From Patescibacteria group bacterium (GTDB lineage Bacteria; Patescibacteriota; Microgenomatia; Levybacterales; UBA12049): a stretch of 64,000 nt of DNA. Below the pieces are notes generated by a model. The model had not been told where the DNA came from, did not search any database, and saw only the letters and a program-made list of their open reading frames with translations. The DNA lies in contig JAMDAA010000022.1 of NCBI GenBank assembly GCA_023484045.1, forward strand, positions 4,201 through 68,200. The letters are read 5' to 3'. This document shows, one piece after another, positions 23,817 to 57,892 of this stretch. The position numbers and the translations under genes are program-made. How positions within the stretch are numbered: position 1 is the stretch's first letter; the number at the start of each line of letters is the position of its first letter.

Positions 23817-24314
23817 TTATTTGACGTTTGCTTTGATGCTAAAAACAAGTTTTTGATTTAGCGGATCATTAGTCGTTACATAAACTTCGCGTTCAACAAA
23901 TCCATACACAGGCATTGTAGCCGGTCTATAAATCAATCTAATAGTAGCTGTGTCACCAGGAACAATTTCTGTGACATACCCACTTTGTGAGTGCATGCCG
24001 TATTCTTTACTCGTAAAATCTTTATAGATAATTTGTCCGGCGGTACAACCGCAACTGGAATTAATATTAAGAATTTGCAAAGGTTTGCTTCCGGTATTTT
24101 TTAAAAAAAAATCTTTTTGTTTGATGTCAGAAACCTTAATATTGCCAAAATCGAAAAAATTTACTGCAGTTTCTGCTTTCGGGCGATTATTTTCTTTAAT
24201 AGAATATGTTGTTGTATTAGGTACTGGTTTTTGCCCCGATATCATGAGAAACGACAATGCGACAACAAGAACAATAAAACCGATCAAACCAAAAATAATT
24301 GTTTTTACAGACAT
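23817..24314 (-). CDS. secreted DUF1573-like protein
   Basis: 165 aa. FDFGNI...F.LKNTGSKPLQILNINSSCGCT matches the DUF1573 signature. Confidence 0.5.
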   Translation of the reverse strand: MSVKTIIFGLIGFIVLVVALSFLMISGQKPVPNTTTYSIKENNRPKAETAVNFFDFGNIKVSDIKQKDFFLKNTGSKPLQILNINSSCGCTAGQIIYKDFTSKEYGMHSQSGYVTEIVPGDTATIRLIYRPATMPVYGFVEREVYVTTNDPLNQKLVFSIKANVK

Positions 24315-27840: not shown

Positions 27841-30222
27841 TTAATTTATTTTTTTAAATGCGATAAAATCGTCAATTTCTTTTATTACGATGTATCGAGG
27901 ATTACTTTTTAATTTTGTCACCATTTCTTTTTGGGCTTTTAGCGATGGCTGGGCGAATTGGTCGTTGAGTAAAAATATAACGATATTTGCCTTGTCGACT
28001 CCGATCGGAATCGTGTAGATATTTTTGCGGTGAGAAAGGTGCGCACCTAAATTATTGGTCGCGGCGATACTGTATCGTTTTGAAATGTGCGCGAGAAAAT
28101 CGACGACTTCATTTTTATGGATGTAAGGTTTCACAAACATATCAATATTCGGCGTTTTAGAGCCCGGAAGCGGGCCGAAAGAATAGGCCGAATATAAAGT
28201 TGCAATGGTTAAATATAAAACAAAGGCAAAAATTGGAATTTTCGGGAAAATCTTTTTTATTTGTTTTATCCCGTAGATCGCAGAGATAAATATAAACGGT
28301 GTTATGGTCGCACTATACTGAAAATATATTTGATGAAGCTGAAGGTTGTTGCTTAAAAGATTAATTAATAGATCGGGAAGTAAGAATATTAAATACAACG
28401 GAGAAAAAAGCGATAAATATCCAAGTGGCAAAAATAACTGGTTTAAATAATGGAGTTTTGCCGGTTGAACAATCGCGAGTATTGTTTTTTGCGGATGAAT
28501 AATTAAATTTCCTATAATCGATCCAGGTGACGACCCAAAATCCGAATAGTAACTAATCGCAAAATGATTTCCACCGCGCGCAGATGGAATCGCGATAGAA
28601 ATTAAATAATAAAAAACTCCGATTGAAAAAAGAAATAATATTAATCCCAAAACGTATTCTAAGCTTCTGTTTTTATTCGAGTTCACTCTTTTAATATCTA
28701 AATAAATATTAGATACGATTAAATATAATCCGAAGAGAGATATAATTGCCCACACCTGCTCTTTAGTAACCGCAGATAATACCGAAAAAATAATAAACAG
28801 GATATATTTTTTTTTAATCATGTAATAAAACGCGGCGAGCAAAAAAGTCGTCGCAAGCGACACGGCGTGAAAATCGTATAAATTAGTATATTGAATCGCG
28901 GGGCTTAAAAGGTAGACGGATGAAAAAACAAGGGCAAGATTTTTGTTTTTTAAAACATGTTTTGCGAGAAGGTAAGCAAAAATCGCGCCGATACCTAAAA
29001 CGACAGTTTGAATTAAAAGAAGCATTCTCGGATCGTTCCAGACGTAATAAAACGGGGTAATAAGGATTAAAATAAAATCTGCGTGGAACGCGAGTCTTGA
29101 AATATTATTAGTGCCGTCGGGGTCAGTTAATTGAAAAGTTCTGCCGTGCAGTGTATTCCAAACGGTTTGGTCCATGTTGCCCAAATCAAAGCGCCCGGCA
29201 TAAAAATTGTCGTATCTAAAAAAACTCGCGGTCGTAAAGTAAATAATGTAGATTAGGATAAATAGCGATAAAAAAATTGCTTGTTTATGTTCGCCGATAA
29301 AATTTTCCAAAAACAATACAACTCTGTTTTTTGAGTGGTACCAAACAAACGCAAAAACTAAAAAAATGATTTCAGAAAGAATTAGAATGACTCTCGCAAA
29401 TATTGAACCGAGTCCAGCAAGACTTAAAGGGATAAACTTTGCTAAACCGATCGTCATTATTCCTTCGCGTACGCCCAAACCCATCGGAGTAATAAACGAT
29501 AAGTAGCCGATCATAAGAGAAAAAACAAAAAAACCGATAAATGTTAGAAGGTAATACGGCTCTAAAAAGACGATCGAGGATATCGTAAAATATGTTCCGA
29601 TTCCGAAAAAGAAAAGGCAAAGTATAGAAATCATGAGTAAAAAAACGAGCGACCAGATCGAAAACCCCTTTAATACACTAAGAAGCTGGGAGTAAAATTT
29701 ATAGATCGAAACGGAGATTACTATAAATAAAAATAGTGCAACAAAAATCATCCAAAGTCCGACGTGAACAACGGGTGTTAAAATAAAAAAAATAAACGGA
29801 AGCGAAAAAAACGAAAAAATTGCACACGCGACAACGAGTAATACTCCCTCGGCGAGAAACGACACCGCGATATCTTTTTTACTTACTCCCCTTTTTGAAA
29901 AAATAACAGTCATCCCTAAAAACGACCAGATGTTTCCCGGGACAAATCGTTTGATTTGAGAAATTTCCCACAAAAAAGACAATTCTTTTAACGGAATTTC
30001 GTAACCTTTTTGTTTTAGTATCTGTTTCCAAAGGATAGCGCGTGTAAAAAAATAAGAAAAAAAACACAGAACCCCGAGCACTAGAAGTGCAAAATTTGTG
30101 TGCTCTAGGCTTACTAGAATTTGCGAACCGTTGGAATATACGACTTTAAATATAAAAAAAAGGGCGAGGATCGCGATTGGCCAGCCTAAGAGAAATTTAG
30201 AGATGTTTAATAATTTTTTCAT
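27841..30222 (-). CDS. large polytopic membrane protein (flippase-like N-terminal half, DUF2079-like C-terminal half)
   Basis: 793 aa with more than 15 TM helices. No catalytic motif recognised. Confidence 0.4.
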   Translation of the reverse strand: MKKLLNISKFLLGWPIAILALFFIFKVVYSNGSQILVSLEHTNFALLVLGVLCFFSYFFTRAILWKQILKQKGYEIPLKELSFLWEISQIKRFVPGNIWSFLGMTVIFSKRGVSKKDIAVSFLAEGVLLVVACAIFSFFSLPFIFFILTPVVHVGLWMIFVALFLFIVISVSIYKFYSQLLSVLKGFSIWSLVFLLMISILCLFFFGIGTYFTISSIVFLEPYYLLTFIGFFVFSLMIGYLSFITPMGLGVREGIMTIGLAKFIPLSLAGLGSIFARVILILSEIIFLVFAFVWYHSKNRVVLFLENFIGEHKQAIFLSLFILIYIIYFTTASFFRYDNFYAGRFDLGNMDQTVWNTLHGRTFQLTDPDGTNNISRLAFHADFILILITPFYYVWNDPRMLLLIQTVVLGIGAIFAYLLAKHVLKNKNLALVFSSVYLLSPAIQYTNLYDFHAVSLATTFLLAAFYYMIKKKYILFIIFSVLSAVTKEQVWAIISLFGLYLIVSNIYLDIKRVNSNKNRSLEYVLGLILFLFSIGVFYYLISIAIPSARGGNHFAISYYSDFGSSPGSIIGNLIIHPQKTILAIVQPAKLHYLNQLFLPLGYLSLFSPLYLIFLLPDLLINLLSNNLQLHQIYFQYSATITPFIFISAIYGIKQIKKIFPKIPIFAFVLYLTIATLYSAYSFGPLPGSKTPNIDMFVKPYIHKNEVVDFLAHISKRYSIAATNNLGAHLSHRKNIYTIPIGVDKANIVIFLLNDQFAQPSLKAQKEMVTKLKSNPRYIVIKEIDDFIAFKKIN

Positions 30223-34622: not shown

Positions 34623-35978
34623 ATGGTCGTTATAAGAAAAAGACTTGTTTACTGGCTCGTAAGAGAGTACATCAAGAAATGGGGGAAAAGAATTCTCTTA
34701 TTTTTCTTTTTGGGTCTCGGATTTTTTTTTATTCTTAGTCTAGTTCTTCCGACAATAATCGCAAAAATTCCTGCAGGGCAGAAGGAATCGATCGGAATCG
34801 TCGGATCTTACACAACCGATAATCTTCCCGATACCATTTTAAATGATATTTCAAACGGTTTAACGAAGGTAGAAGATAATGCGACACCTAGGCCAGCGCT
34901 CGCAAAATCGTGGAAGGTTCACGAAAATGGAATGGGCTATATATTCAAATTAAGAGAAGATATTACGTTCTCCGACGGAACAAAATTTACATCGAAAGAC
35001 ATCGACTATAAGTTTAAAGACGTCACTGTTTACAAGCCCGACGATTACACGATCGCGTTTAAATTAAAAGAAGAATACGCTCCTTTTCTAACGACCGTGT
35101 CTGCGCCGATTTTTAAAAAAGGGTATGTTGGCACAGGTGAATATTCGATAAAAGACGTCCAGTTGAACGGAAATTTTATTGAATCTATAACATTAGCGTC
35201 GCGGAAAAACAAGTTTAAAATAAGAAAGTATCAATTTTATCCATCTATGGATGCTATAAAGACAGCGTATTCGCTCGGTGAAGTTTCTAGGATTATCGGA
35301 ATATCGAATCCGTATTTTAAAGACAGGTCACTCGGATTATTTCCAAACACAAACGTAAAGAAAAATGTCGATTATTCAAAATTAATAACAATTTTTTATA
35401 ACACCCAAGACAAGGTTTTGTCGGACAAAAAAATAAGAACAGGTCTTTCCTACGCTGTCTCCGACAAATTTGAGTATGGAGAAAGGGCGTACGGGCCGTA
35501 TCCTCCTGTTTCTTGGGCAAACAGGCCAGAAAACGCAGAACACATCCAAGATTTAGAACACTCAAGATTATTATTGTCCGCGGCGAACGAATCCGGAAAA
35601 GAAAAAATACAGGTCGATATGAAGGTATTCCCGAAATACAAAAAAATCGCCGAGGATATCGCCAAAGCCTGGAAAGAAGTCAATGTGGATACTAAAATCG
35701 AAGAAGTAAACTCTTTTCCACCTGTCTTTCAAGTTTTTTTGGGCGACTTTAATGTACCAGAAGATCCGGATCAATACACCCTTTGGCATTCCGATCAGGC
35801 AAACAATATATCCAATTATAAAAACCTGAGAATAGATAAACTTTTAGAAGACGGAAGAAAAACATTCGATGCAGAGAAGCGTAAAAAGATTTATTCCGAT
35901 TTTCAAAAATATCTGATCGACGATCAACCCGCGACGTTTCTTTACTTTCCTTACGAATATGTGATCCAACGAAAATGA
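34623..35978 (+). CDS. ABC transporter substrate-binding protein, family 5 (peptide/nickel type), membrane-anchored
   Basis: LAKSWKVHENGMGYIFKLREDITFSDGTKFTSKDI matches the SBP_bac_5 N-terminal signature. Confidence 0.6.
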   Translation: MVVIRKRLVYWLVREYIKKWGKRILLFFFLGLGFFFILSLVLPTIIAKIPAGQKESIGIVGSYTTDNLPDTILNDISNGLTKVEDNATPRPALAKSWKVHENGMGYIFKLREDITFSDGTKFTSKDIDYKFKDVTVYKPDDYTIAFKLKEEYAPFLTTVSAPIFKKGYVGTGEYSIKDVQLNGNFIESITLASRKNKFKIRKYQFYPSMDAIKTAYSLGEVSRIIGISNPYFKDRSLGLFPNTNVKKNVDYSKLITIFYNTQDKVLSDKKIRTGLSYAVSDKFEYGERAYGPYPPVSWANRPENAEHIQDLEHSRLLLSAANESGKEKIQVDMKVFPKYKKIAEDIAKAWKEVNVDTKIEEVNSFPPVFQVFLGDFNVPEDPDQYTLWHSDQANNISNYKNLRIDKLLEDGRKTFDAEKRKKIYSDFQKYLIDDQPATFLYFPYEYVIQRK

Positions 35979-44197: not shown

Positions 44198-44304
44198 ACA
44201 TATTCATTGTATATAATTGATAAAAATAGTATGTATAACTCATTTTTATACGAAAAAATGTTGACTATTGACATATAGATTATTTTTTGATACTATCTAA
44301 GCAA

Positions 44305-45516
44305 ATGATTCACTCTTTTACTTGCAAAAACTTTTATTCATTCCCTAAGAAAACAACCATTAGCTTTGTTGTTAATGAAAATGCTCCTGATAATAATGGA
44401 TATCTTAAAACTCCTTCAGGGGTGCGCCTTTCTAAGGCAGAAATTGTCATTGGTTCTAACGCTTCAGGGAAAACCAATCTTCTTAAAATAGTGCCGTTTT
44501 TAAAATGGATTATCCTTGACTCGTTTAACATAAATCCATCAGCACCCATACCGGTACAACCATTTATGTTTAGTGATTTAAAAAACAAACCAACAGAACT
44601 TTCTGTGGAGTTTGAAATTGATGGTAATATCTATCTGTACGAATTTGTTCTGAATAGCAAGAGAATCATATCGGAAAACCTTAAAGTTAAAAATAAAACT
44701 AAGAAACGTGTTACTTATAAAATGCTTTTTTCTCGAAATTGGGACGAAGAAAGCGAAAAATATAACTTTGAAGGCAAAAATTTCGATTTACCAAAAGGGT
44801 TTGAAAATTTACTTCGTTCAAATGCGAGTGTTATTGGTTCTGCTTCGCGATTGAACCATAAAGAAAGTCAAGAAATTGCAAAATATTGGCAACAAGTAGA
44901 GACAAATGTTATTGAAGCTGGTTGGATAGGCGATCATTTATTACTTAATGCGACTCAACAATTGCCAGAGGTATTTAACTTCTATAGCGAAAATGAGTCG
45001 TTAAAGAAGGAAGCTGAAAAGCTATTATCCCGTTTTGACCTGGGTTTAGCAGGATTTGAGATAGAAAAACAAAAACAGGAAAACGGTTTTTTACTTAATA
45101 TAAAGGCTACGCATTTATTGAATGGGCAAAAGCATTATCTTCCTGTTCAATATGAATCTTCGGGTACAAAACAGCTTTTTGTGCTTTTAAAGACAATTCT
45201 GCAGGTTTTAACTAAAGGTGGCGTAGCAATATTGGATGAGTTTGATGTTAATTTGCACCCGGAAATGGTTCTATCGCTTTTTGAATTATTTATTCAACCT
45301 GAAACCAATCCTAAAAATGCCCAAATATTATTTAGCACCCATAGCCACCTAGTCTTAAGCAAGCTAGACAAGTACCAGATAATTCTAACTGAAAAAAATG
45401 ATGATGGTGCAAGTGAATCCTGGCGTTTAGATGAAATGTCTGGAGTTCGTGCAGACGATAATTATTACTCAAAATATATTGCTGGTGCATATGGAGCCAT
45501 CCCAAAAATTAATTAA
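44305..45516 (+). CDS. AAA_21-type ABC/ATPase, AbiLi/RloA-like defence ATPase
   Basis: Walker A GSNASGKTN, Walker B AILDEFDVNLHP, ABC-like SSGTKQL. Promoter-like TTGACA..TACTAT immediately upstream. Confidence 0.7.
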   Translation: MIHSFTCKNFYSFPKKTTISFVVNENAPDNNGYLKTPSGVRLSKAEIVIGSNASGKTNLLKIVPFLKWIILDSFNINPSAPIPVQPFMFSDLKNKPTELSVEFEIDGNIYLYEFVLNSKRIISENLKVKNKTKKRVTYKMLFSRNWDEESEKYNFEGKNFDLPKGFENLLRSNASVIGSASRLNHKESQEIAKYWQQVETNVIEAGWIGDHLLLNATQQLPEVFNFYSENESLKKEAEKLLSRFDLGLAGFEIEKQKQENGFLLNIKATHLLNGQKHYLPVQYESSGTKQLFVLLKTILQVLTKGGVAILDEFDVNLHPEMVLSLFELFIQPETNPKNAQILFSTHSHLVLSKLDKYQIILTEKNDDGASESWRLDEMSGVRADDNYYSKYIAGAYGAIPKIN

Positions 45517-45527
45517 ATGGAAATACT

Positions 45528-46064
45528 ATGTCGAGAACAAATCCTTACAAGAAAAAAAGACGCTCGGCAAACAAGACAATTCTTATTTACAGTGAGGGAT
45601 TACATGAAGAAGTTTTCCTAAAGCACCTAAGAGGTTTATACTCCCAGAACAAAAATGTTGCAATTACTGTCAAAAAAGGTAAAGGCGGAACTGCTGATTC
45701 TCTTGTAATTCAGGCGAATAAAACATTAGGCGCCTTTGATAGAAGAGTCGTGGTATTAGATAACGATAAAAACAAATCCGAAATGCAAAAAGCTAGGCAA
45801 GAAGCAGAAAATAGAAAAATTGAATTATTCGAACATACACCTTGCCTTGAAGCGGTACTATTATCCATATTACGCAAAGGACAAAACTTCAAACAGAAAA
45901 GTTCCAGTTGGTGTAAACAAGAATTTGAATCAAAATATATTGATAGAAAAAAGAGAGGTGAAGTAGACGAATATGTAAAGCTTTTTCCTACGAGTCTACT
46001 GAATAAAGAAATTTCGAAAGTTGCCGAGTTAAAAAGGTTGATTTCTCTTATGCTTGGGGAGTGA
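45528..46064 (+). CDS. RloB/AbiLii-like (DUF4276, TOPRIM-like) partner protein
   Basis: 178 aa. N-terminus KKRRSANKTILIYSEGLHEEVFLKHL fits the RloB pattern (basic stretch plus ILIvcEG..tE). Lies 12 nt after the ATPase. Confidence 0.6.
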   Translation: MSRTNPYKKKRRSANKTILIYSEGLHEEVFLKHLRGLYSQNKNVAITVKKGKGGTADSLVIQANKTLGAFDRRVVVLDNDKNKSEMQKARQEAENRKIELFEHTPCLEAVLLSILRKGQNFKQKSSSWCKQEFESKYIDRKKRGEVDEYVKLFPTSLLNKEISKVAELKRLISLMLGE

Positions 46065-47986: not shown

Positions 47987-48720
47987 TCATTTTTTGCGCG
48001 CGCGATTTTCGGGAACTTCGTTCCCCTATAATACCACAAACTGAATCGGCCAAAATGGTGGAAATTGGCCGATTCCAAGTACAAAAACTTCCGGTTCCAC
48101 CACTTTTTTGGTTCTCGCCAAGCCAAACGAAAGAACGAACTGAAGATTTTTCCGGCGGTTCCCGCCGGTTTTTTTGTTTCGCCCCTTCCAAACACTTTAC
48201 TATTGTAGAAGAGTACAAGAGTAGAAGATTAAAGTAGAGGTTATCAAATTTCTATCAACCCACCCACCCGACTGAAATTGTTGGCGGCGACCCCATTCAT
48301 CGCGCGCTGGGCGCCCTAGGGGGCGCCTGCGACAACGGTTTTACTTTTCTAAGAGTTCCTACAGCGCGTCCCTCGCCCCGCTGCGGCGGGGCTTGTCTTT
48401 AGTTTTGACTTTTAAGGCTCGCGCGTTCTGGGGTGTCCGCTTTTCGCCCCCGCCTTCTTTATTTGACCCCTTCCTGCTATTCAGGGCTCGGGTTCACGCT
48501 TAAGGAAATAAACTTTAGAACCCTCGCTCCTGATCCCAATGGCTCGCCCCGCGTTTTCTTTCCCTTAAAGATTATCAAGCGGGGCTCGCGTTAGTCGGGA
48601 ACGCTCGTTAAAGTAAGTGGTAACTCGAAGGGTTTTCTGTCGCGTTCCCTCCTTTTTAGCTGGGTGCTATTGAGGGGGCGGGGGCGGCGGAGCCGCCAAC
48701 AACAAAATGAAAAAAAAAGA
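47987..48720 (+). ncRNA. GC-rich ORF-poor region with many stable hairpins; candidate large structured ncRNA (strand uncertain)
   Basis: About 60% GC against a ~35% background. Only overlapping short ORFs on both strands. Hairpins GGGAACuucgGTTCCC, GAATCGGCCAA..TTGGCCGATTC, GGCGCCCuagGGGGCGCC, GCCCCGCugcgGCGGGGC, GGCGGagCCGCC, and a terminator-like CCGGCGGttcCCGCCGG followed by T7. Confidence 0.4.
48152..48176 (+). terminator. intrinsic-terminator-like hairpin inside the GC-rich region
   Basis: CCGGCGG ttc CCGCCGG followed by TTTTTTTG. Confidence 0.45.
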
Positions 48721-50629: not shown

Positions 50630-53542
50630 TTAAACCTTCTTTTTCGCTTTAATTAATAAAACAACTGTAATAAGAATGATAAACGCCATTATTCCGATGA
50701 CTGATATTACTTGTGGATTAAGAAAAGCGTTTGTTTGCTTAACTTGAATGTTTAAATCAAATTCTTTGACATCTCCAGTTAGGTTTACTGTTTGTTCTCC
50801 TTGATAGTTAGCATAAGCAATGTTTATTTTATGTTGACCAGATTCCACATTAGAAAACTGAGCAATTCCGTTTTTATCGGTTGTGGTTTCTTGAACTTTT
50901 GAATGAATAGTAACTTTTGCACCTGGAACAGGTCTGTTTGTCGTATCCACAACCTTAATTTTGACTGTATAGCCATTTTGTTTAACAGCTTGTTTTTCTT
51001 CTTCTGTTTGAGCTGGAACAGTTTTTTGTTCGGTGATCTTAGTTTCTAAATTTCCATTGAATAGACTCTGTAGTGGAGCTGGCAAGTTGTTGTTTATTGA
51101 AAGATAAAATACAGGTTGAGTATATGTGTTTCCTGCACTATCCTTTAGTGCAATTGTACTTTGGTAATGCCCGTCAATTAACGGGAATGGAACAGTAATA
51201 TAAAATCTGGATGACTTTTTGTCGTTTGAACTGTCTTGAATGTTGGACAAAGAATAATCTTGGGTTAAATAGTCAGCATAAGTTTTATCGTCTTTTTGTC
51301 TTTTTAATGTCAGCGTAAGTGTTTGTGGTCCAGACGAAACTTTATCAAAAGTATCGGTCGAATTATTACTATTTGTCTTTATTGAACCCTGATAACTGTC
51401 GACTGCTAATCCTGAGAATGAAGGTGTTCGATTTAAAATACTTATGTTGTAAATTCCTCCGGAATTCACTATCGATACATTTGCAACGGCTAACTCTGAA
51501 ATAGCAGGTGAAGTTTTGTCAATATAAAAATCGGCAGATTGAGAAGTTGAATTAGATTGAGCATCATAAGTAGTAACTGTCCAAGTATGTTTTCCCTCAG
51601 TCAGTTCGGTATTGTTTAAATCTTTAAAGTAAACATGAATTTCGTCGTTTGAACTATCACTATCATTTTCGTTTATGAACTCGATTTTTACAGAGTTGTC
51701 ATCTTTCCATACATAATCGGCTGATCCATTTCCTGAAGTTGGAATACCAGAAGTTGAAAGGCTACGGTTCTTTCCTGAATCTAACGATACAGAATATGAG
51801 GATAAACCACTTCCAGAATCAGAAGACTTTTTGAAAACTAAAGTGGGTTTTGTATCTTCTTTGCTAAAACCCGTTGGAGAAGATAGGGATCCAGCCGTGG
51901 GTGCAGTTGTATCAACTCTAAAATCTGGACTGCCTCCCATGGAAACCCACGATCCGTTACCTGCTGAATTATTAATCCTTGCCTGCCAATGATAGGAAGT
52001 TCCGCTTGTTAACCCGGTAACTGTTACGCTTCCGGTTACGGCTGTTCCCGTAAAAGCGACGGCACTCCCCGTATTTGTGACTGAATTAGTGAAAGCGGTT
52101 CCGTTTGGCTGTATCTCTATTTGAGGAGTAAGGGAATCAGAAGAATTACTTGATGACATGTTAAACTTTAAAATAATTGTTCCTTCGTTTGTATATGCTC
52201 CTGAGGAAATTGCTGTTGTTCCATCTGTTTTATATTGAGCCAATGCGGAAGGTGCCGAGGGCAATATAAACTCATAGACTCCATCATCAGGGGCAGAACC
52301 CTGTGGAACTATTGTTCCGGCAAAATCTGAAGTAAGACTTAAATCCGTACCAGCATTAATTGCCGGGCTAGAAGATGTTAAATGAAAATCTGAACTACTT
52401 CTATTCAAAAATGAAGGTTCTACAAAAGTGCTATGACTATCCCATCCTGTATCTGTTTTCCAGGTTGCGAAATCAACAAATGCGTTATTATATCTAAATT
52501 GACCCTGTGCTGAACCATCTGTGTAGTAAATATTGTAATCAACATCGTTATCGCTCGCTGTATTATTGAGGTCGTCGCTAGCCCTAGTATTATACGCAAA
52601 GACATTATTTCGGATTACTACTCCACTAACAGTGGTTATTGTACTTCCTGGGCCAAATACAAACCCGTGCATATTACCATAACTGGTATTGTTATAAATA
52701 TATGAAACCCCATTCGCTCTTAAATGTTCTTCTACCCATACTCCATTCCAACCCGCTCCATAAGTTATGTTGTACCGAAAAATAAAACCGTTAGAGTTTA
52801 CGTCAAAATGAGCATTGCTCTTATAACCATTGTAAAAAGTGTTCTTTTCAACTAAGGCGTTGATTGTATCTCCCGTATATAAGTTATCACTCCAATCAAG
52901 AAAACCTTGGTTATCATTTAGAGTACTTCCTGTAATTATTGGAGCTGACAAATGGTTAAGCCAAACTCCGATTTGACCAATACTTGTATGATCTAGACCG
53001 TTGTTATAAACATGACTGCCATCTAAGCGAAAACCAGTTGATCGATAACTTGAGCTTTGACCTTCGATTCTAAGTCCAAAAACACCGTTATGATCAATAT
53101 CTGACGAATAAATTTTAAAGTTACTTATTGGGGTAAAATTAGTTGCGTAACTCATCCAAACTCCAGTGTAGTAGTTATTAGTGATCTTCATATTCTGAAG
53201 AGTTATATTTGAAGGTGTGTTCCAGGTTGGTTTTAATCCAAAACCTCTGCCGTACTGTCCGCCTGCTCCGTCAATTTGAAGTCCGTTAAAGGTTATATTA
53301 GATCTGTCATCACAAGATACAACATCATATCTGGCTCCAATTTCCATAGTGTGTGTTGAAGGATTTGCCCCGTCAGAAGCCCAGTAATACACAATATGAG
53401 CAGTGCTGTCATAGTAAAACATTTTTGCGCCTGTTATTGCCGCCAAACTTCCCACAGGTGTAGCCATTACGTTGTCTTCCAGAAGAAGATAAATACCAAT
53501 AGATGCCGTGTAGCTTGCTTTATAAATATTGCCACTTTGCAA
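50630..53542 (-). CDS. about 1000-aa surface protein: right-handed beta-helix (pectate-lyase-like) repeats, Ig/fibronectin-like and carboxypeptidase-regulatory-like domains, C-terminal TM anchor
   Basis: 970-aa ORF from a TTG. N-, S- and G-rich beta-helix repeats (NNVFAYN.., NNTSYGN.., VIRNNVF). C-terminal VISVIGIMAFIILITVVLLIKAKKKV. The true N-terminus with the signal peptide lies upstream in other frames (see 53467-53938). Confidence 0.7.
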   Translation of the reverse strand: MQSGNIYKASYTASIGIYLLLEDNVMATPVGSLAAITGAKMFYYDSTAHIVYYWASDGANPSTHTMEIGARYDVVSCDDRSNITFNGLQIDGAGGQYGRGFGLKPTWNTPSNITLQNMKITNNYYTGVWMSYATNFTPISNFKIYSSDIDHNGVFGLRIEGQSSSYRSTGFRLDGSHVYNNGLDHTSIGQIGVWLNHLSAPIITGSTLNDNQGFLDWSDNLYTGDTINALVEKNTFYNGYKSNAHFDVNSNGFIFRYNITYGAGWNGVWVEEHLRANGVSYIYNNTSYGNMHGFVFGPGSTITTVSGVVIRNNVFAYNTRASDDLNNTASDNDVDYNIYYTDGSAQGQFRYNNAFVDFATWKTDTGWDSHSTFVEPSFLNRSSSDFHLTSSSPAINAGTDLSLTSDFAGTIVPQGSAPDDGVYEFILPSAPSALAQYKTDGTTAISSGAYTNEGTIILKFNMSSSNSSDSLTPQIEIQPNGTAFTNSVTNTGSAVAFTGTAVTGSVTVTGLTSGTSYHWQARINNSAGNGSWVSMGGSPDFRVDTTAPTAGSLSSPTGFSKEDTKPTLVFKKSSDSGSGLSSYSVSLDSGKNRSLSTSGIPTSGNGSADYVWKDDNSVKIEFINENDSDSSNDEIHVYFKDLNNTELTEGKHTWTVTTYDAQSNSTSQSADFYIDKTSPAISELAVANVSIVNSGGIYNISILNRTPSFSGLAVDSYQGSIKTNSNNSTDTFDKVSSGPQTLTLTLKRQKDDKTYADYLTQDYSLSNIQDSSNDKKSSRFYITVPFPLIDGHYQSTIALKDSAGNTYTQPVFYLSINNNLPAPLQSLFNGNLETKITEQKTVPAQTEEEKQAVKQNGYTVKIKVVDTTNRPVPGAKVTIHSKVQETTTDKNGIAQFSNVESGQHKINIAYANYQGEQTVNLTGDVKEFDLNIQVKQTNAFLNPQVISVIGIMAFIILITVVLLIKAKKKV

Positions 53543-53938
53543 ACTCCAACCAGTAACAAGATCGGTCCCTGTGATACGGGTTTGGAAGCTGATGCACCGT
53601 AAGAGTTGTAGGTAATGGGGTTACCTGTGGAACCACCAGTATTTACATACCAAGTTTCTCTCCAAACATCACCTTTCTTTAGTGATACTTGATCTCCAGC
53701 AACAAAACCAAACCCAGCCAGTTTAGCCATCGTTTTAAATGGTCCTGTGCTTCCAGTTGTGTGAGTCTGTTCAAGCCCGTCATAAGAATCATACCCATCA
53801 GTTTGACTAACGTAATAAGTTGCAGCAAAAGCTTTAGTATTTACAACGAAGAATAATGAAACGAATACTAATAGAGAACAAAAAGTTTTTAGGAGAAAAT
53901 TTAGCCGCGGCCTTTTACTCTCTCTCTCTCTCTCTCAT
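53467..53938 (-). other. out-of-frame 5' part of the surface-protein gene: ATG, (GA)9, signal peptide, first beta-helix turns
   Basis: ATG at 53938-53936 is followed by (AG)9 and then an in-frame TAA. The +1 frame encodes SKRPRLNFLLKTFCSLLVFVSLFFVVNTKAFAATYYVSQTDG... continuing into the 87-aa ORF at 53467-53730. A second shift of -1 near 53560-53600 joins this to the 970-aa frame. Confidence 0.55.
53918..53935. repeat. (TC/GA)9 dinucleotide tract at codons 2-7 of the surface-protein gene
   Basis: ctctctctctctctctct on the plus strand. With 9 units the ATG frame stops immediately. With 10 units the ATG would be in frame with the signal peptide. Confidence 0.9.
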
Positions 53939-54120
53939 TTTTGATCCCGAAGTTGGGAGCAATTTGTTTAAACATAACATATTAGATGTGTGAAATTATA
54001 TTTCCCCTACTATTACTATTAAATATAGAAACAATTTCTAGCAAATGCAATAGATAGTTAAGCTTAAAACGTGCCTATTTTTGCTATTGTTTTCTTTTTC
54101 TGTTTTTTGTATATTAAAAA

Positions 54121-54209: not shown

Positions 54210-54284
54210 AAGTATTAAAAACTATAGGGAAAAAGTTCTTTAAAATTTTTGCGTTTTTTCTTTAGGATTCGAGCTGACAGTTTT

Positions 54285-54423
54285 CGGAGGCGCGGCGGGT
54301 GGAGGCGCCGCGCCGAAAGCGAAATAGCGACGAAGCGAGGACGGCGAAGCCGGACGAGCGAGGAGCTGACGCAAGACGTAATTAATTTTTAAAATAGGTT
54401 CGAATTTTTTCGTAAACGTTCAC
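54285..54423. repeat. inverted repeat A', partner of 47847-47986
   Basis: Reverse complement of A. Contiguous with B'. Confidence 0.8.
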
Positions 54424-54526
54424 CAGTAAAGAAATTGAAGCAGAAGTGGGGGCAGCGCGAGCCGCGCCCCCAATCGCGGCGAGCGCTGCAAAGGGATATT
54501 TTAACGCTGGCCGGAGTTGCCGGTTA
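54421..54526. repeat. inverted repeat B', perfect partner of 56010-56116
   Basis: tcaccagtaaagaaattgaagcagaagtgggggcagcgcgagccgcgcccccaatcgcggcgagcgctgcaaagggatattttaacgctggccggagttgccggtt equals the reverse complement of 56010-56116. Confidence 0.85.
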
Positions 54527-54614
54527 GAATGAAAGGACAGAAGAAAAAACGCAAAAATTAACAAGGTAGAATTTTAAAGAACTTTTTAAGAGTACAAAAG
54601 TACTAAACTAAAGT

Positions 54615-56009
54615 ATGAATAAATACATAGCATATTGCCGAAAATCAACCGACGAGAAAGACAAACAGGTGTTATCTATTGAAGCGCAAATTGCAGAACT
54701 CAAAGAATTTGCTAAACGTGATCATTTAGAAGTTGTTGAATTTATTACCGAAGCCAAAACAGCTAAAATGCCAGGGCGTGAGCAATTTGCGCTAGTCTTA
54801 AAGAAAATTGAAAAAGGAGAAGCCCAAGGCATTATAAGTTGGCACCCAGACCGTTTAGCCAGAAATTCAATAGATGGAGGTAAAGTTATCTATTTATTGG
54901 ATACCGGAAAGTTAATAGATTTGAAATTTCCGTCTTTTTGGTTTGAAAATACTCCCCAAGGAAAATTTATGTTATCCATTGCCTTCGGCCAGTCAAAATA
55001 TTATGTGGATAATTTATCGGAAAATGTAAAGCGTGGTAATCGCCAAAAACTTCGTCGTGGTGAGTGGCCTTCAAAAGCACCATACGGATATATTAATAAT
55101 CCTAAAACCAGAGCCGTTGATGTTGACCCCGAATTATCCAAAGTTGTTAAAAAAGCTTTTCAGCTTTTTTCCGAAGGCAATAAGTCGTTTACGGAAATTT
55201 CAAACTTTATGTTTAAGTTTGGGATGAAGCGGGAAAGTTGTGGGAAACCGATTAAAGTTGATCAAATAAAACGGATGTTATCAAACAAATTTTATGTAGG
55301 AATTTTAAAGTATGCCGATGAATATTATGAAGCTTCCCATAAATGTTTCATCTCCAAACAACTTTTTAATGATGTCCAAAAGCAGGTGGAAAAAATCTTG
55401 CGTCCTAGGCAACACGGCCACGATTTTGCTTTTTCCGGTTTAGCCACTTGTGGAGAGTGCGGCGCCGCAATCACGGCAGAACAACACGTAAAACATTACA
55501 AAAATGGTAAATCCCAAACTTTTATCTATTACCGCTGTACTAAAAAGTTAAAGCCCTGTACACAAAAGTATTTACCAGAAGGTGATTTAGAAGAGCAATT
55601 AAAAAAAGTGGTGGGTGATTGCGGCTTGCACCAGGATTGGGAACCCTATTTTGAAAAATGGATGGCCGAAGATGAGAAAAAAGATCAAGCTAATTCAGAC
55701 ACAGAATTAAGAAGGCTTGGCGAGAACCAAAAGGAAATTGAAACAAAACTTAATCGCTTACTTAATGGTTATTTAGATCAAGTGGTGGAACCGGAAGTTT
55801 ACAAACAAAAGAAAAATGAATTATTTGACGAAAAACTAAAACTTACCGAGCAAATTGCCAAAGTTTCAAAGATTGGTTCGTCTTGGCTCGAACCTATGAG
55901 AGAATTCGTAATTAGCGCCTTGCAGGCGCAAAAAATCGCGCGCGTAAAAAATGAGTGCCATGATTTGGCGATCATGGCAAAAACTGTCGGCTCGAACTAT
56001 TCTTTATTT
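54615..56009 (+). CDS. large serine recombinase (resolvase/invertase catalytic domain plus recombinase and zinc-ribbon-like extension)
   Basis: N-terminus YIAYCRKSTDEKDKQVLSIEAQ with the catalytic Ser in the Y.R.S context. About 465 aa to the start of repeat B. The frame stays open through B and antisense tRNA-Lys to 56276. C-terminal Cys pairs CGECG..CTKK. Confidence 0.8.
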
Positions 56010-56116
56010 AACCGGCAACTCCGGCCAGCGTTAAAATATCCCTTTGCAGCGCTCGCCGCGATTGGGGGCGCGGCTCGCGCTGCCCCCACTTCTGCTTCAA
56101 TTTCTTTACTGGTGAG
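56010..56116. repeat. inverted repeat B (107 bp) abutting and overlapping the tRNA-Lys CCA end
   Basis: Perfect reverse complement of 54421-54526. Contains the strong hairpin GGGGGCGCGgctCGCGCtgCCCCC. Ends in CTGGTGA, shared with the tRNA 3' terminus. Confidence 0.85.
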
Positions 56117-56184
56117 CCGGACAGGATTCGAACCTGTGACCAATTGCTTAAAAGGCAACTGCTCTACCGCTGAGCTACCGGCCC
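56110..56184 (-). tRNA. tRNA-Lys (anticodon TTT) with encoded CCA
   Basis: Acceptor GGGCCGG/CCGGCTC, anticodon stem GTTGC/GCAAT, loop CTTTTAA, T-loop TTCGAAT, 3' ACCA. Confidence 0.85.
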
Positions 56185-56272
56185 GCCCACCACGCAAGCC
56201 GAGCATTGCGAGGCGTTGCGGGCAGGCCCGCTCGCCCCATCTTCACACTCAACTTTTGCAGCTTTTTAAATT

Positions 56273-56524
56273 CTAGTTTTCAAAAATTTTCTTCCAAATC
56301 CAGTTTTAAAATATTTTTCTCTTTTAATCGCCTTTTCTTTATCTAAGCACGCTTCGTAATATATTAGTCTTAAAGGTAATCTGCCTTTTGTTGCTAAGCT
56401 TTTTCTTTTTCTGTGAACTTCTAACCTTTTCTTTAAATCTTCTGTATATCCAGTATAAAGCTTACCGTCTTTTTCACTTTTAAGAACATATGTATAAACA
56501 TTACCTTTTCTCGTGATTATATCA
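56273..56524 (-). pseudogene. GIY-YIG nuclease-family gene (copy 3) lacking a canonical start codon
   Basis: Minus-strand frame encodes ITRKGNVYTYVLKSEKDGKLYTGYTEDLKKRLEVHRK...REKYFKTGFGRKFL with an in-frame TAA immediately upstream and no ATG, GTG or TTG. Not in the ORF track. Lies 88 bp upstream of tRNA-Lys on the same strand. Confidence 0.5.
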
Positions 56525-57359: not shown

Positions 57360-57446
57360 ATTGAACGTATTTAGGTTTTAGGATATAATATACGAACGCC
57401 GCGTTCGTCTAGTGGCGGTAATTAGGTTTTTCCCGAGACAATTTTT

Positions 57447-57520
57447 GGCGCGTTCGTCTAGAGGCCTAGGACAGATGGTTTTCATCCATCAAATCGCGGG
57501 TTCGAATCCCGCACGCGCTA
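57447..57520 (+). tRNA. tRNA-Glu (anticodon TTC)
   Basis: Acceptor GGCGCGT/ACGCGCT, anticodon stem GATGG/CCATC, loop TTTTCAT, T-loop TTCGAAT. The upstream 57399-57411 partially duplicates the 5' end (gcgttcgtctag). Confidence 0.85.
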
Positions 57521-57547
57521 CACTTCGGCAGGCTCAGTGCAAGCAAT

Positions 57548-57838
57548 ATGAATAAGCCTCAGAGTTGGTATCTTTACATGCTTCTTTGCGATCAGAAATC
57601 TTTTTATGTTGGGATTACTCCTAATCCGAAAGAAAGAATAGCCGAACATAGAAATAAAGAGTGCATCGCGACGAAAGAATTTTCTGATTTTAAAATGGTT
57701 TATTGTGAAAAGTATTTGAATAAATTTGAAGCAGTAAAAAGAGAAAAACAAATTAAAGGTTGGAGTAGAACAAAGAAGCAAATGCTTATTGAAGGAAAAT
57801 TAGGGATAAATACAAGCACTGAGTTTGTCGAAGTGTAA
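57548..57838 (+). CDS. small GIY-YIG nuclease-family protein (copy 2)
   Basis: 96 aa. WYLYMLLCDQKSFYVGITPNPKERIAEH, with a downstream conserved Arg and Glu. Starts 27 nt after tRNA-Glu. Confidence 0.75.
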   Translation: MNKPQSWYLYMLLCDQKSFYVGITPNPKERIAEHRNKECIATKEFSDFKMVYCEKYLNKFEAVKREKQIKGWSRTKKQMLIEGKLGINTSTEFVEV

Positions 57839-57874: not shown

Positions 57875-57892
57875 GAATCCCGCACGCGCTAC
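57875..57892 (+). other. duplicated 3'-end fragment of tRNA-Glu (T-loop to 3' end)
   Basis: gaatcccgcacgcgctac is identical to 57504-57521 of the intact tRNA. Preceded by a CTGAGCGAAGCCGAAG motif. Confidence 0.7.

Follow-up and report, generated by a model that had tools for sequence, protein, structure and literature searches.

A length-variable AG tract in the leader of a Patescibacteria surface-protein gene as a candidate contingency switch

The stretch of DNA analysed here (the window; 64 kb of contig JAMDAA010000022.1 from a metagenome-assembled genome, or MAG, of Patescibacteria) carries on its minus strand the gene of a large beta-helix surface protein whose start codon is followed directly by nine AG dinucleotides. 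We compared this locus across 10 assemblies, three of them of the window strain (the window itself, from the NCBI MAG, and the Logan run assemblies L001 and L002) and seven of a sister lineage (L003–L007, L014 and L015). The elements of the locus on which the argument turns are the following, in window coordinates.

53995-54022 (-): promoter-like site, TTAATA, 16-nt spacer, TATAAT (10/12 matches; a consensus match only)
53978-53980 (-): second ATG, sharing the frame of the tract ATG and 42 nt upstream of it; possible alternative start
53936-53938 (-): ATG directly 5' of the tract; start codon
53918-53935 (-): (AG)9 tract, (CT)9 on the plus strand; codons 2-7 counted from ATG 53938, codons 16-21 from ATG 53980
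53915-53917 (-): TAA terminating the ATG frame at 9 units, product MRERERE; kept in the sister lineage
53901-53903 (-): TAA terminating the third frame (8 or 11 units); kept in the sister lineage
53882-53917 (-): 36-nt block 3' of the tract, TAAAAGGCCGCGGCTAAATTTTCTCCTAAAAACTTT, coding for the charged start of the signal peptide
53824-53919 (-): signal-peptide coding region, SKRPRLNFLLKTFCSLLVFVSLFFVVNTKAFA, in the +1 frame relative to the ATG
53578-53580 (-): C3 run, second frameshift site; GGG on the plus strand, context AAACCC followed by GTA; C4 keeps the frame open
50630-53823 (-): mature surface protein, split over two frames at 53578-53580 in the window

By its Pfam matches the protein combines right-handed beta-helix, Ig-like and CarboxypepD_reg domains with a C-terminal membrane anchor. 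The NCBI annotation covers only its 970-aa downstream part (MCL5438945.1, from the Patescibacteria MAG), and an exact look-up of that 970-aa product returned no record. Annotation from the internal start conceals both the signal peptide and the putative switch.

Leader of the surface-protein gene

No dinucleotide other than this AG is repeated six or more times in succession anywhere in the window, and under a first-order Markov model only about 1e-5 runs of nine units would be expected in 64 kb. An earlier note on this DNA had described an ATG, (AG)9 and an in-frame TAA in direct succession, with a signal peptide in the next frame running into the beta-helix protein, and had concluded that the gene is currently OFF; all of this is borne out. 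The three elements lie at 53938-53915 (-), and the ATG frame gives only MRERERE. The +1 frame, closed upstream by a TGA that overlaps the ATG, reads ERERESKRPRLNFLLKTFCSLLVFVSLFFVVNTKAFA and then ATYYVSQTDG..., with a charged start leading into a hydrophobic core and an AFA cleavage motif, after which the mature protein begins. Homologues of the N-terminal domain (P0053, P0055, P0057 and P0058) confirm that this is the real coding frame: in each, an ordinary signal peptide that begins with ATG immediately precedes the shared (T)YYV..GSDSYDGLEQTHTTGSTGP start. Either wrong frame is closed, after 7 or about 11 codons, by a TAA conserved in both lineages.

A start that bypasses the tract, which the note had named as a refuting case, was looked for and can be excluded: from the tract up to the cleavage site, the signal-peptide frame (frame A) contains no ATG, GTG, TTG, CTG or ATH codon, and its first in-frame start, the ATG of MAKLAG (53730), is already within the mature domain, 32 residues from its beginning. 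The ATG at 53938 is not the only one, as had been supposed, since a second, at 53980-53978, lies 14 nt past the TATAAT box (54000-53995) and has a counterpart matching it in position and frame in the sister lineage; both ATGs share a frame and the frame logic is unchanged. Several genes of the window have a TATAAT 6-13 nt 5' of their ATG, a spacing that suggests short-leader or leaderless starts. The sequence 5' of ATG 53938 is a weaker GGGA, as is usual for a genome with rare Shine–Dalgarno motifs; in the sister lineage the tract ATG is preceded by GGAGG and a 5-nt spacer, and on this basis the tract ATG is predicted to be the true start.

Second frameshift site in the window strain

Look-ups by way of the neighbouring genes recovered only L001 and L002 for the window strain. 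Across 4.3-4.6 kb both match the window at every position outside the C run, and all three assemblies have (AG)9. L001 (run SRR10252151) has C4, a continuous frame and a 1033-aa gene call; L002 (run SRR10267473) has C3 and a break identical to that of the window. The note had suspected a second frame break of this kind and had left it between a switch, an error and decay. The break is real, and since C3 was found in two assemblies and C4 in the third, it represents a polymorphism across assemblies and not a sequencing error; a second-site lesion is a better reading of it than a switch or an error. L001 is an intact but OFF allele of the same strain.

On the C4 background, the note's statement that 10, 7 or 13 units bring the ATG into frame holds in silico: addition of one AG unit to L001 (10 units) gives an open frame of 1103 aa, 7 units give 1101 aa and 13 units 1105 aa. 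It fails for the window itself, where the product of a 10-unit allele ends at 157 aa. Because the C3 frameshift would cut the product there, the window allele is not switchable by the tract alone, and among the alleles of this strain the tract alone would be able to switch only the C4 allele of L001.

Tract length in the sister lineage

The closest relative of the protein, P0002, has 72% aa identity over the beta-helix half, and both lineages have as neighbours a TrpR-like gene, a small open reading frame (ORF), an M23 peptidase gene and a large serine recombinase gene, the last lying upstream in divergent orientation. Sister-lineage gene callers start the protein at the same internal MAKLAG; the leader before it consists of GGAGG, 5 nt, ATG and (AG)n, and continues with TAAAAGCTCGCGGCTAAATTTTCTTGTAAAAACT. 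A check of repeat length in related loci, which the note had recommended, gave 8 units in L003 and L004 and 7 units in L005, L006, L007, L014 and L015, at the same ATG. The 8-unit allele reads MRERERVKARG and then stops. Both lengths occur among the IMG data sets, with 8 units in L004 (IMG 3300025323) and 7 in L015 (IMG 3300025317). Over about 5 kb, L003–L007 differ, besides the tract, only by six singleton single-nucleotide polymorphisms (SNPs) and one 19-nt deletion (in L007), and no SNP separates the 7-unit from the 8-unit contigs. Since near-identical backgrounds differ in unit number, the tract is among the most changeable sites of the locus.

Selection and conservation between the lineages

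Compared between the window and the sister lineage, the leader is conserved to different degrees along its length:

upstream region: 37/67 identical (55%)
AG tract: perfect (uninterrupted) in both lineages, at the same position after the ATG
36 nt after the tract: 31/36 identical (86%)
rest of the signal peptide: 36/57 identical (63%)

Over the first 640 codons the proportion of synonymous differences (pS) is 0.75, which is saturated, and that of non-synonymous differences (pN) is 0.17. Considering that pN is this low while pS is saturated, purifying selection has acted on the ORF through most of the time since the lineages split, and neutral sites have been randomized. Against this background the unbroken tract in both lineages and the 86% identity of the following 36 nt stand out. 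The ratio (pN/pS about 0.23) tests constraint on the frame and is blind to very recent loss of function. In most contigs the frames are otherwise open across 1033-1197 aa.

The tract as a contingency switch

Building on the observed anatomy, conservation, length polymorphism and selection on the reading frame, we consider it probable that in this Patescibacteria bacterium the (AG)n tract, placed between the start codon and the signal peptide, acts as a hypermutable contingency switch that works by slipped-strand mispairing and controls a beta-helix surface protein, secreted and anchored in the membrane. The repeat is uninterrupted, lies in the 5' coding region, has a unit that is not a multiple of three and is far above the length predicted by base composition, and its length varies among close relatives (7 versus 8 units in the sister lineage). 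Replication slippage by one AG unit in either direction would shift the ATG among three frames, of which one (7, 10 or 13 units in the window lineage) would read MRERE(RE)SKRPRLNFLL... through the signal peptide into a protein of about 1100 aa, and the remaining two would halt at the conserved TAA codons. A population would in this way mix cells with and without the surface protein, and such a mixture might hedge against whatever recognizes the protein, for example a phage or a host-cell partner. The window allele, with 9 units, is OFF and has in addition lost one C (C4 to C3 at 53578-53580). For the tract itself we infer reversibility, a switching rate and an adaptive value.

Several results weigh against this proposal. 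All 10 assemblies are OFF and none holds an ON allele; no protein starting with MRERE was found in 90%-identity protein clusters or by an N-terminal search, the clusters holding only 945-, 970- and 1033-aa forms for the window lineage and only MAKLAG-starting forms for the sister lineage. Within the window strain the tract does not vary (9 units in 3/3 assemblies), and the window allele is a two-hit null that needs two events to be turned on. With the 7 units of five sister contigs the ATG is in the homologous frame, which stops at a TAG after 29 codons; all seven sister contigs carry T6, and the frame would open only with one nucleotide more in the interval from the tract to the frame-A TAG, for which T6 to T7 is the simplest route. 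A change in the tract alone gives a full-length frame in silico for L001 and not for the window (157 aa) or the sister alleles (29 aa without the extra nucleotide). Moreover, in L007 (contig ANAN16-1_SAMN03842431 scaffold_67953) the 19-nt deletion, about 1235-1253 nt after the ATG, breaks the gene into ORFs of 365 and 826 aa, so that an almost clonal population carries yet another disruptive lesion of independent origin. Such a pattern is expected of a gene that is mostly OFF and gathers second-site lesions, and likewise of a gene recently dead in both lineages. The phase-variation switch put forward in the earlier note stands in that the tract sets the frame, is conserved and varies in length (7, 8 or 9 units); it falls short in the missing ON allele and in the two events that the window requires.

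Alternative explanations

The serious rival is a recently dead pseudogene, in which the AG run would be a mutational weak point and the later lesions (C3, T6 and the 19-nt deletion) neutral decay, with no adaptive switching. We judge this the less probable account, though it keeps an appreciable chance of being right, given the several independent inactivating lesions described above: every assembly is OFF, the window and L002 carry two lesions each, every sister contig needs its extra nucleotide, the L007 deletion splits the gene, and the protein clusters contain no ON form. Yet most contigs keep the rest of the frame unbroken across 1033-1197 aa, and the pN/pS of about 0.23 with saturated pS indicates long-term constraint instead of relaxed selection. 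An unselected dinucleotide run should moreover have been interrupted or lost, whereas this one is perfect in both lineages and at the same place, and an intact OFF allele (L001) coexists with a broken one in a single strain.

A second alternative is recoding on the repeat with no change in the DNA, by a ribosomal slip of -2 (equivalent to +1) or by slippage of RNA polymerase, giving MRERERESKRPR... as a 10-unit allele would. In the ribosomal route the tRNA-Glu on GAG would re-pair two bases back, with the TAA waiting in the A site. A shift of 2 nt within (AG)n would restore perfect codon–anticodon pairing; the run is followed directly by a stop codon, which is known from RF2 and comparable sites to stimulate frameshifting; and the three same-strain assemblies all have 9 units. 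Recoding would call for a conserved relation between the ATG and the main ORF, but the frame offset varies with 7, 8 or 9 units, being +1 in the window, +1 in the 8-unit sister allele (there closed by a TAA) and -1 in the 7-unit allele. The window allele would, furthermore, still terminate at the C3 break, and the leader has no stimulatory RNA structure (z -0.29 and -0.75). We consider recoding very unlikely.

In a third account, the ATG, (AG)n and the 36-nt leader block form a movable 5' module or recombination site that becomes joined to different genes, perhaps by the neighbouring serine recombinase, and the frame mismatch reflects the arrangement. This brings in the following features:

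54615-56276 (+): large serine recombinase ORF with Resolvase, Recombinase and Zn_ribbon_recom domains
54420-54526 and 56009-56115: perfect 107-nt inverted repeats around the recombinase
54230-54262 and 54541-54587: shorter nested inverted repeats

The right arm of the 107-nt repeats codes for the C terminus of the recombinase and overlaps the last 6 nt of a tRNA-Lys gene (56110-56184, -). The layout is the same in the sister lineage, where the arms of L005 (5609-5727 and 7201-7319; 119 nt) are 97% complementary and lie beside a tRNA-Glu gene. The recombinase element beside the surface-protein gene may be invertible or mobile. No inversion was found among the available contigs, the orientation being the same in the window, L005 and L006; an inverton at the leader was considered and rejected, given that the 107-nt repeats flank the recombinase and that a single orientation is seen.

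Leader-like sequence was also found away from this locus. In L011 (contig Ga0114931_10182278, 1363-1398, -) the 5' coding region of a reverse transcriptase (RT) gene of the diversity-generating retroelement (DGR)/retron type contains a 36-nt stretch, (GA)6G TAAAA CG CGCGCGGCTAAATTTT, that is nearly identical to the surface-protein leader, the tract and the first 23 nt of the post-tract block being matched. Relatives of this RT have variable N termini of the form ..ERE(RE)n..AAK(I/F)FNFQNL. L011 came from a metagenome and genome scan whose pattern forced part of the match, and the same pattern did not retrieve the window locus. The same scans also gave unrelated genes with in-frame ERESK coding (L008-L010, L012 and L013), and viral contigs scanned for the leader pattern, the corrected form included, gave no match.

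The movable module is favoured by this recurrence of the block (tract, TAAAA, CGCGGCTAAATTTT) within the 5' coding region of an unrelated RT gene and by the position of the recombinase and its repeats 480 nt upstream of the leader. However, a second copy of the block, sought as a shufflon partner, is absent from the window, the recombinase repeats exclude the leader, the arrangement is identical in the window, L005 and L006, and the significance of the L011 match is overstated by the search pattern; we regard this account as highly improbable. A wider conjecture, for which we see a small chance, is that the start codon, (GA)n and the conserved block make up a portable 5' switching module placed before unrelated Patescibacteria genes (the surface-protein gene and the L011 RT gene), maybe acting together with the neighbouring recombinase. 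If this were true, the locus would be one instance of a wider, layered system of variation and not an isolated repeat.

That assembly or sequencing errors account for the frame breaks, the real gene being intact, is scarcely credible: the breaks do sit at a short repeat and a homopolymer, which are typical sites of indel errors, but (AG)9 is shared by the NCBI MAG and both Logan assemblies, each assembled separately; different pipelines gave (AG)7 in five cases and (AG)8 in two; C3 was recovered twice; and the other long genes of the window are unbroken.

Two further candidates were set aside. A structured RNA or riboswitch in the leader is excluded by folding no better than that of shuffled sequence (the z values given above) and by an Rfam search of the leader with nothing above threshold. 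A genetic code in which TGA is read as sense is excluded by the long ORFs, which table 11 leaves unbroken, and by the 6/33 genes of the window that end in TGA; it is also irrelevant to the blocking stop, which is a TAA.

Other features of the window

Beyond the recombinase, a GIY-YIG nuclease ORF (57548-57838, +) lies between perfect 18-nt direct repeats at 57504-57521 and 57875-57892. The repeated sequence is the 3' end of a tRNA-Glu gene (57447-57521), a partial copy of whose 5' part is present at 57400-57416, and the region looks like a small insertion at a tRNA gene. An AAA_21 (AbiEii-like ATPase) gene adjoins a RloB-like gene (44287-46064, +), and the two look like a defence-type gene pair. 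The window also contains four A9 or T9 homopolymers (48710-48718, 28807-28815, 34722-34730 and 24103-24111), of which one lies 36 nt upstream of the start of the M23 peptidase gene (48754) and two lie inside ORFs of 793 and 451 aa.

Significance and relation to known systems

The prevailing view of Patescibacteria, also called the Candidate Phyla Radiation (CPR), is that they live attached to other cells; which partners they bind and which phages can infect them probably depends on their surface proteins. If the (AG)n tract is a contingency switch, it would be direct genomic evidence that small-genome environmental bacteria share a stochastic on/off strategy with host-adapted pathogens and mycoplasmas. 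The number of AG units per read would then be a simple marker in existing metagenome reads, by which the heterogeneity of a population could be tracked over time.

The closest known case is that of the Helicobacter pylori outer-membrane protein genes oipA/hopH, sabA, sabB and hopZ, which carry CT/AG repeats in the signal-sequence region: the motif is the same, as are the position in the 5' coding or signal-peptide region and the on/off logic of slipped-strand frameshifting. The present locus differs in that it belongs to uncultured groundwater Patescibacteria and not to a host-adapted pathogen, that it encodes an unrelated beta-helix/Ig-like protein with a C-terminal membrane anchor, and that second-site frameshifts are present and no switching or ON alleles have been observed. 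In the opa genes of Neisseria, CTCTT repeats lie inside the signal-peptide coding region, and there too a repeat in the leader peptide sets the frame of an adhesin-like surface protein. The opa unit, in contrast, is a pentanucleotide, the genes form a recombining multigene family and their ON and OFF states are experimentally documented.

Simple-sequence contingency loci of Haemophilus, Campylobacter and Neisseria have been reviewed (PMC11868660, PMC3315296); they resemble the present locus in their hypermutable repeats, reversible frameshifts and association with surface-structure genes, whereas their tracts are mostly homopolymeric or tetranucleotide, belong to pathogens and commensals and occur at many loci per genome, as against one in the 64-kb window. 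Within the CPR, a Gracilibacteria genome contains a surface-protein gene with a hypervariable, in-frame 9-nt (PTD) repeat and synonymous variation (PMC6851277). That case is alike in being a CPR bacterium in which repeat-driven variation is localized to one predicted surface protein, and differs in having neither a frameshift nor an on/off logic (PMC6851277). It was also the nearest report in the literature searched on phase variation in Patescibacteria and the CPR, where we found none of a frameshifting simple-sequence repeat switch; the earlier note's remark that such a mechanism would be unexpected in a CPR-type genome expresses an opinion, for which the literature searched offered no report either way. 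The class of mechanism is already known, and what would be new here, as far as the sequences indicate, is a member of it in Patescibacteria.

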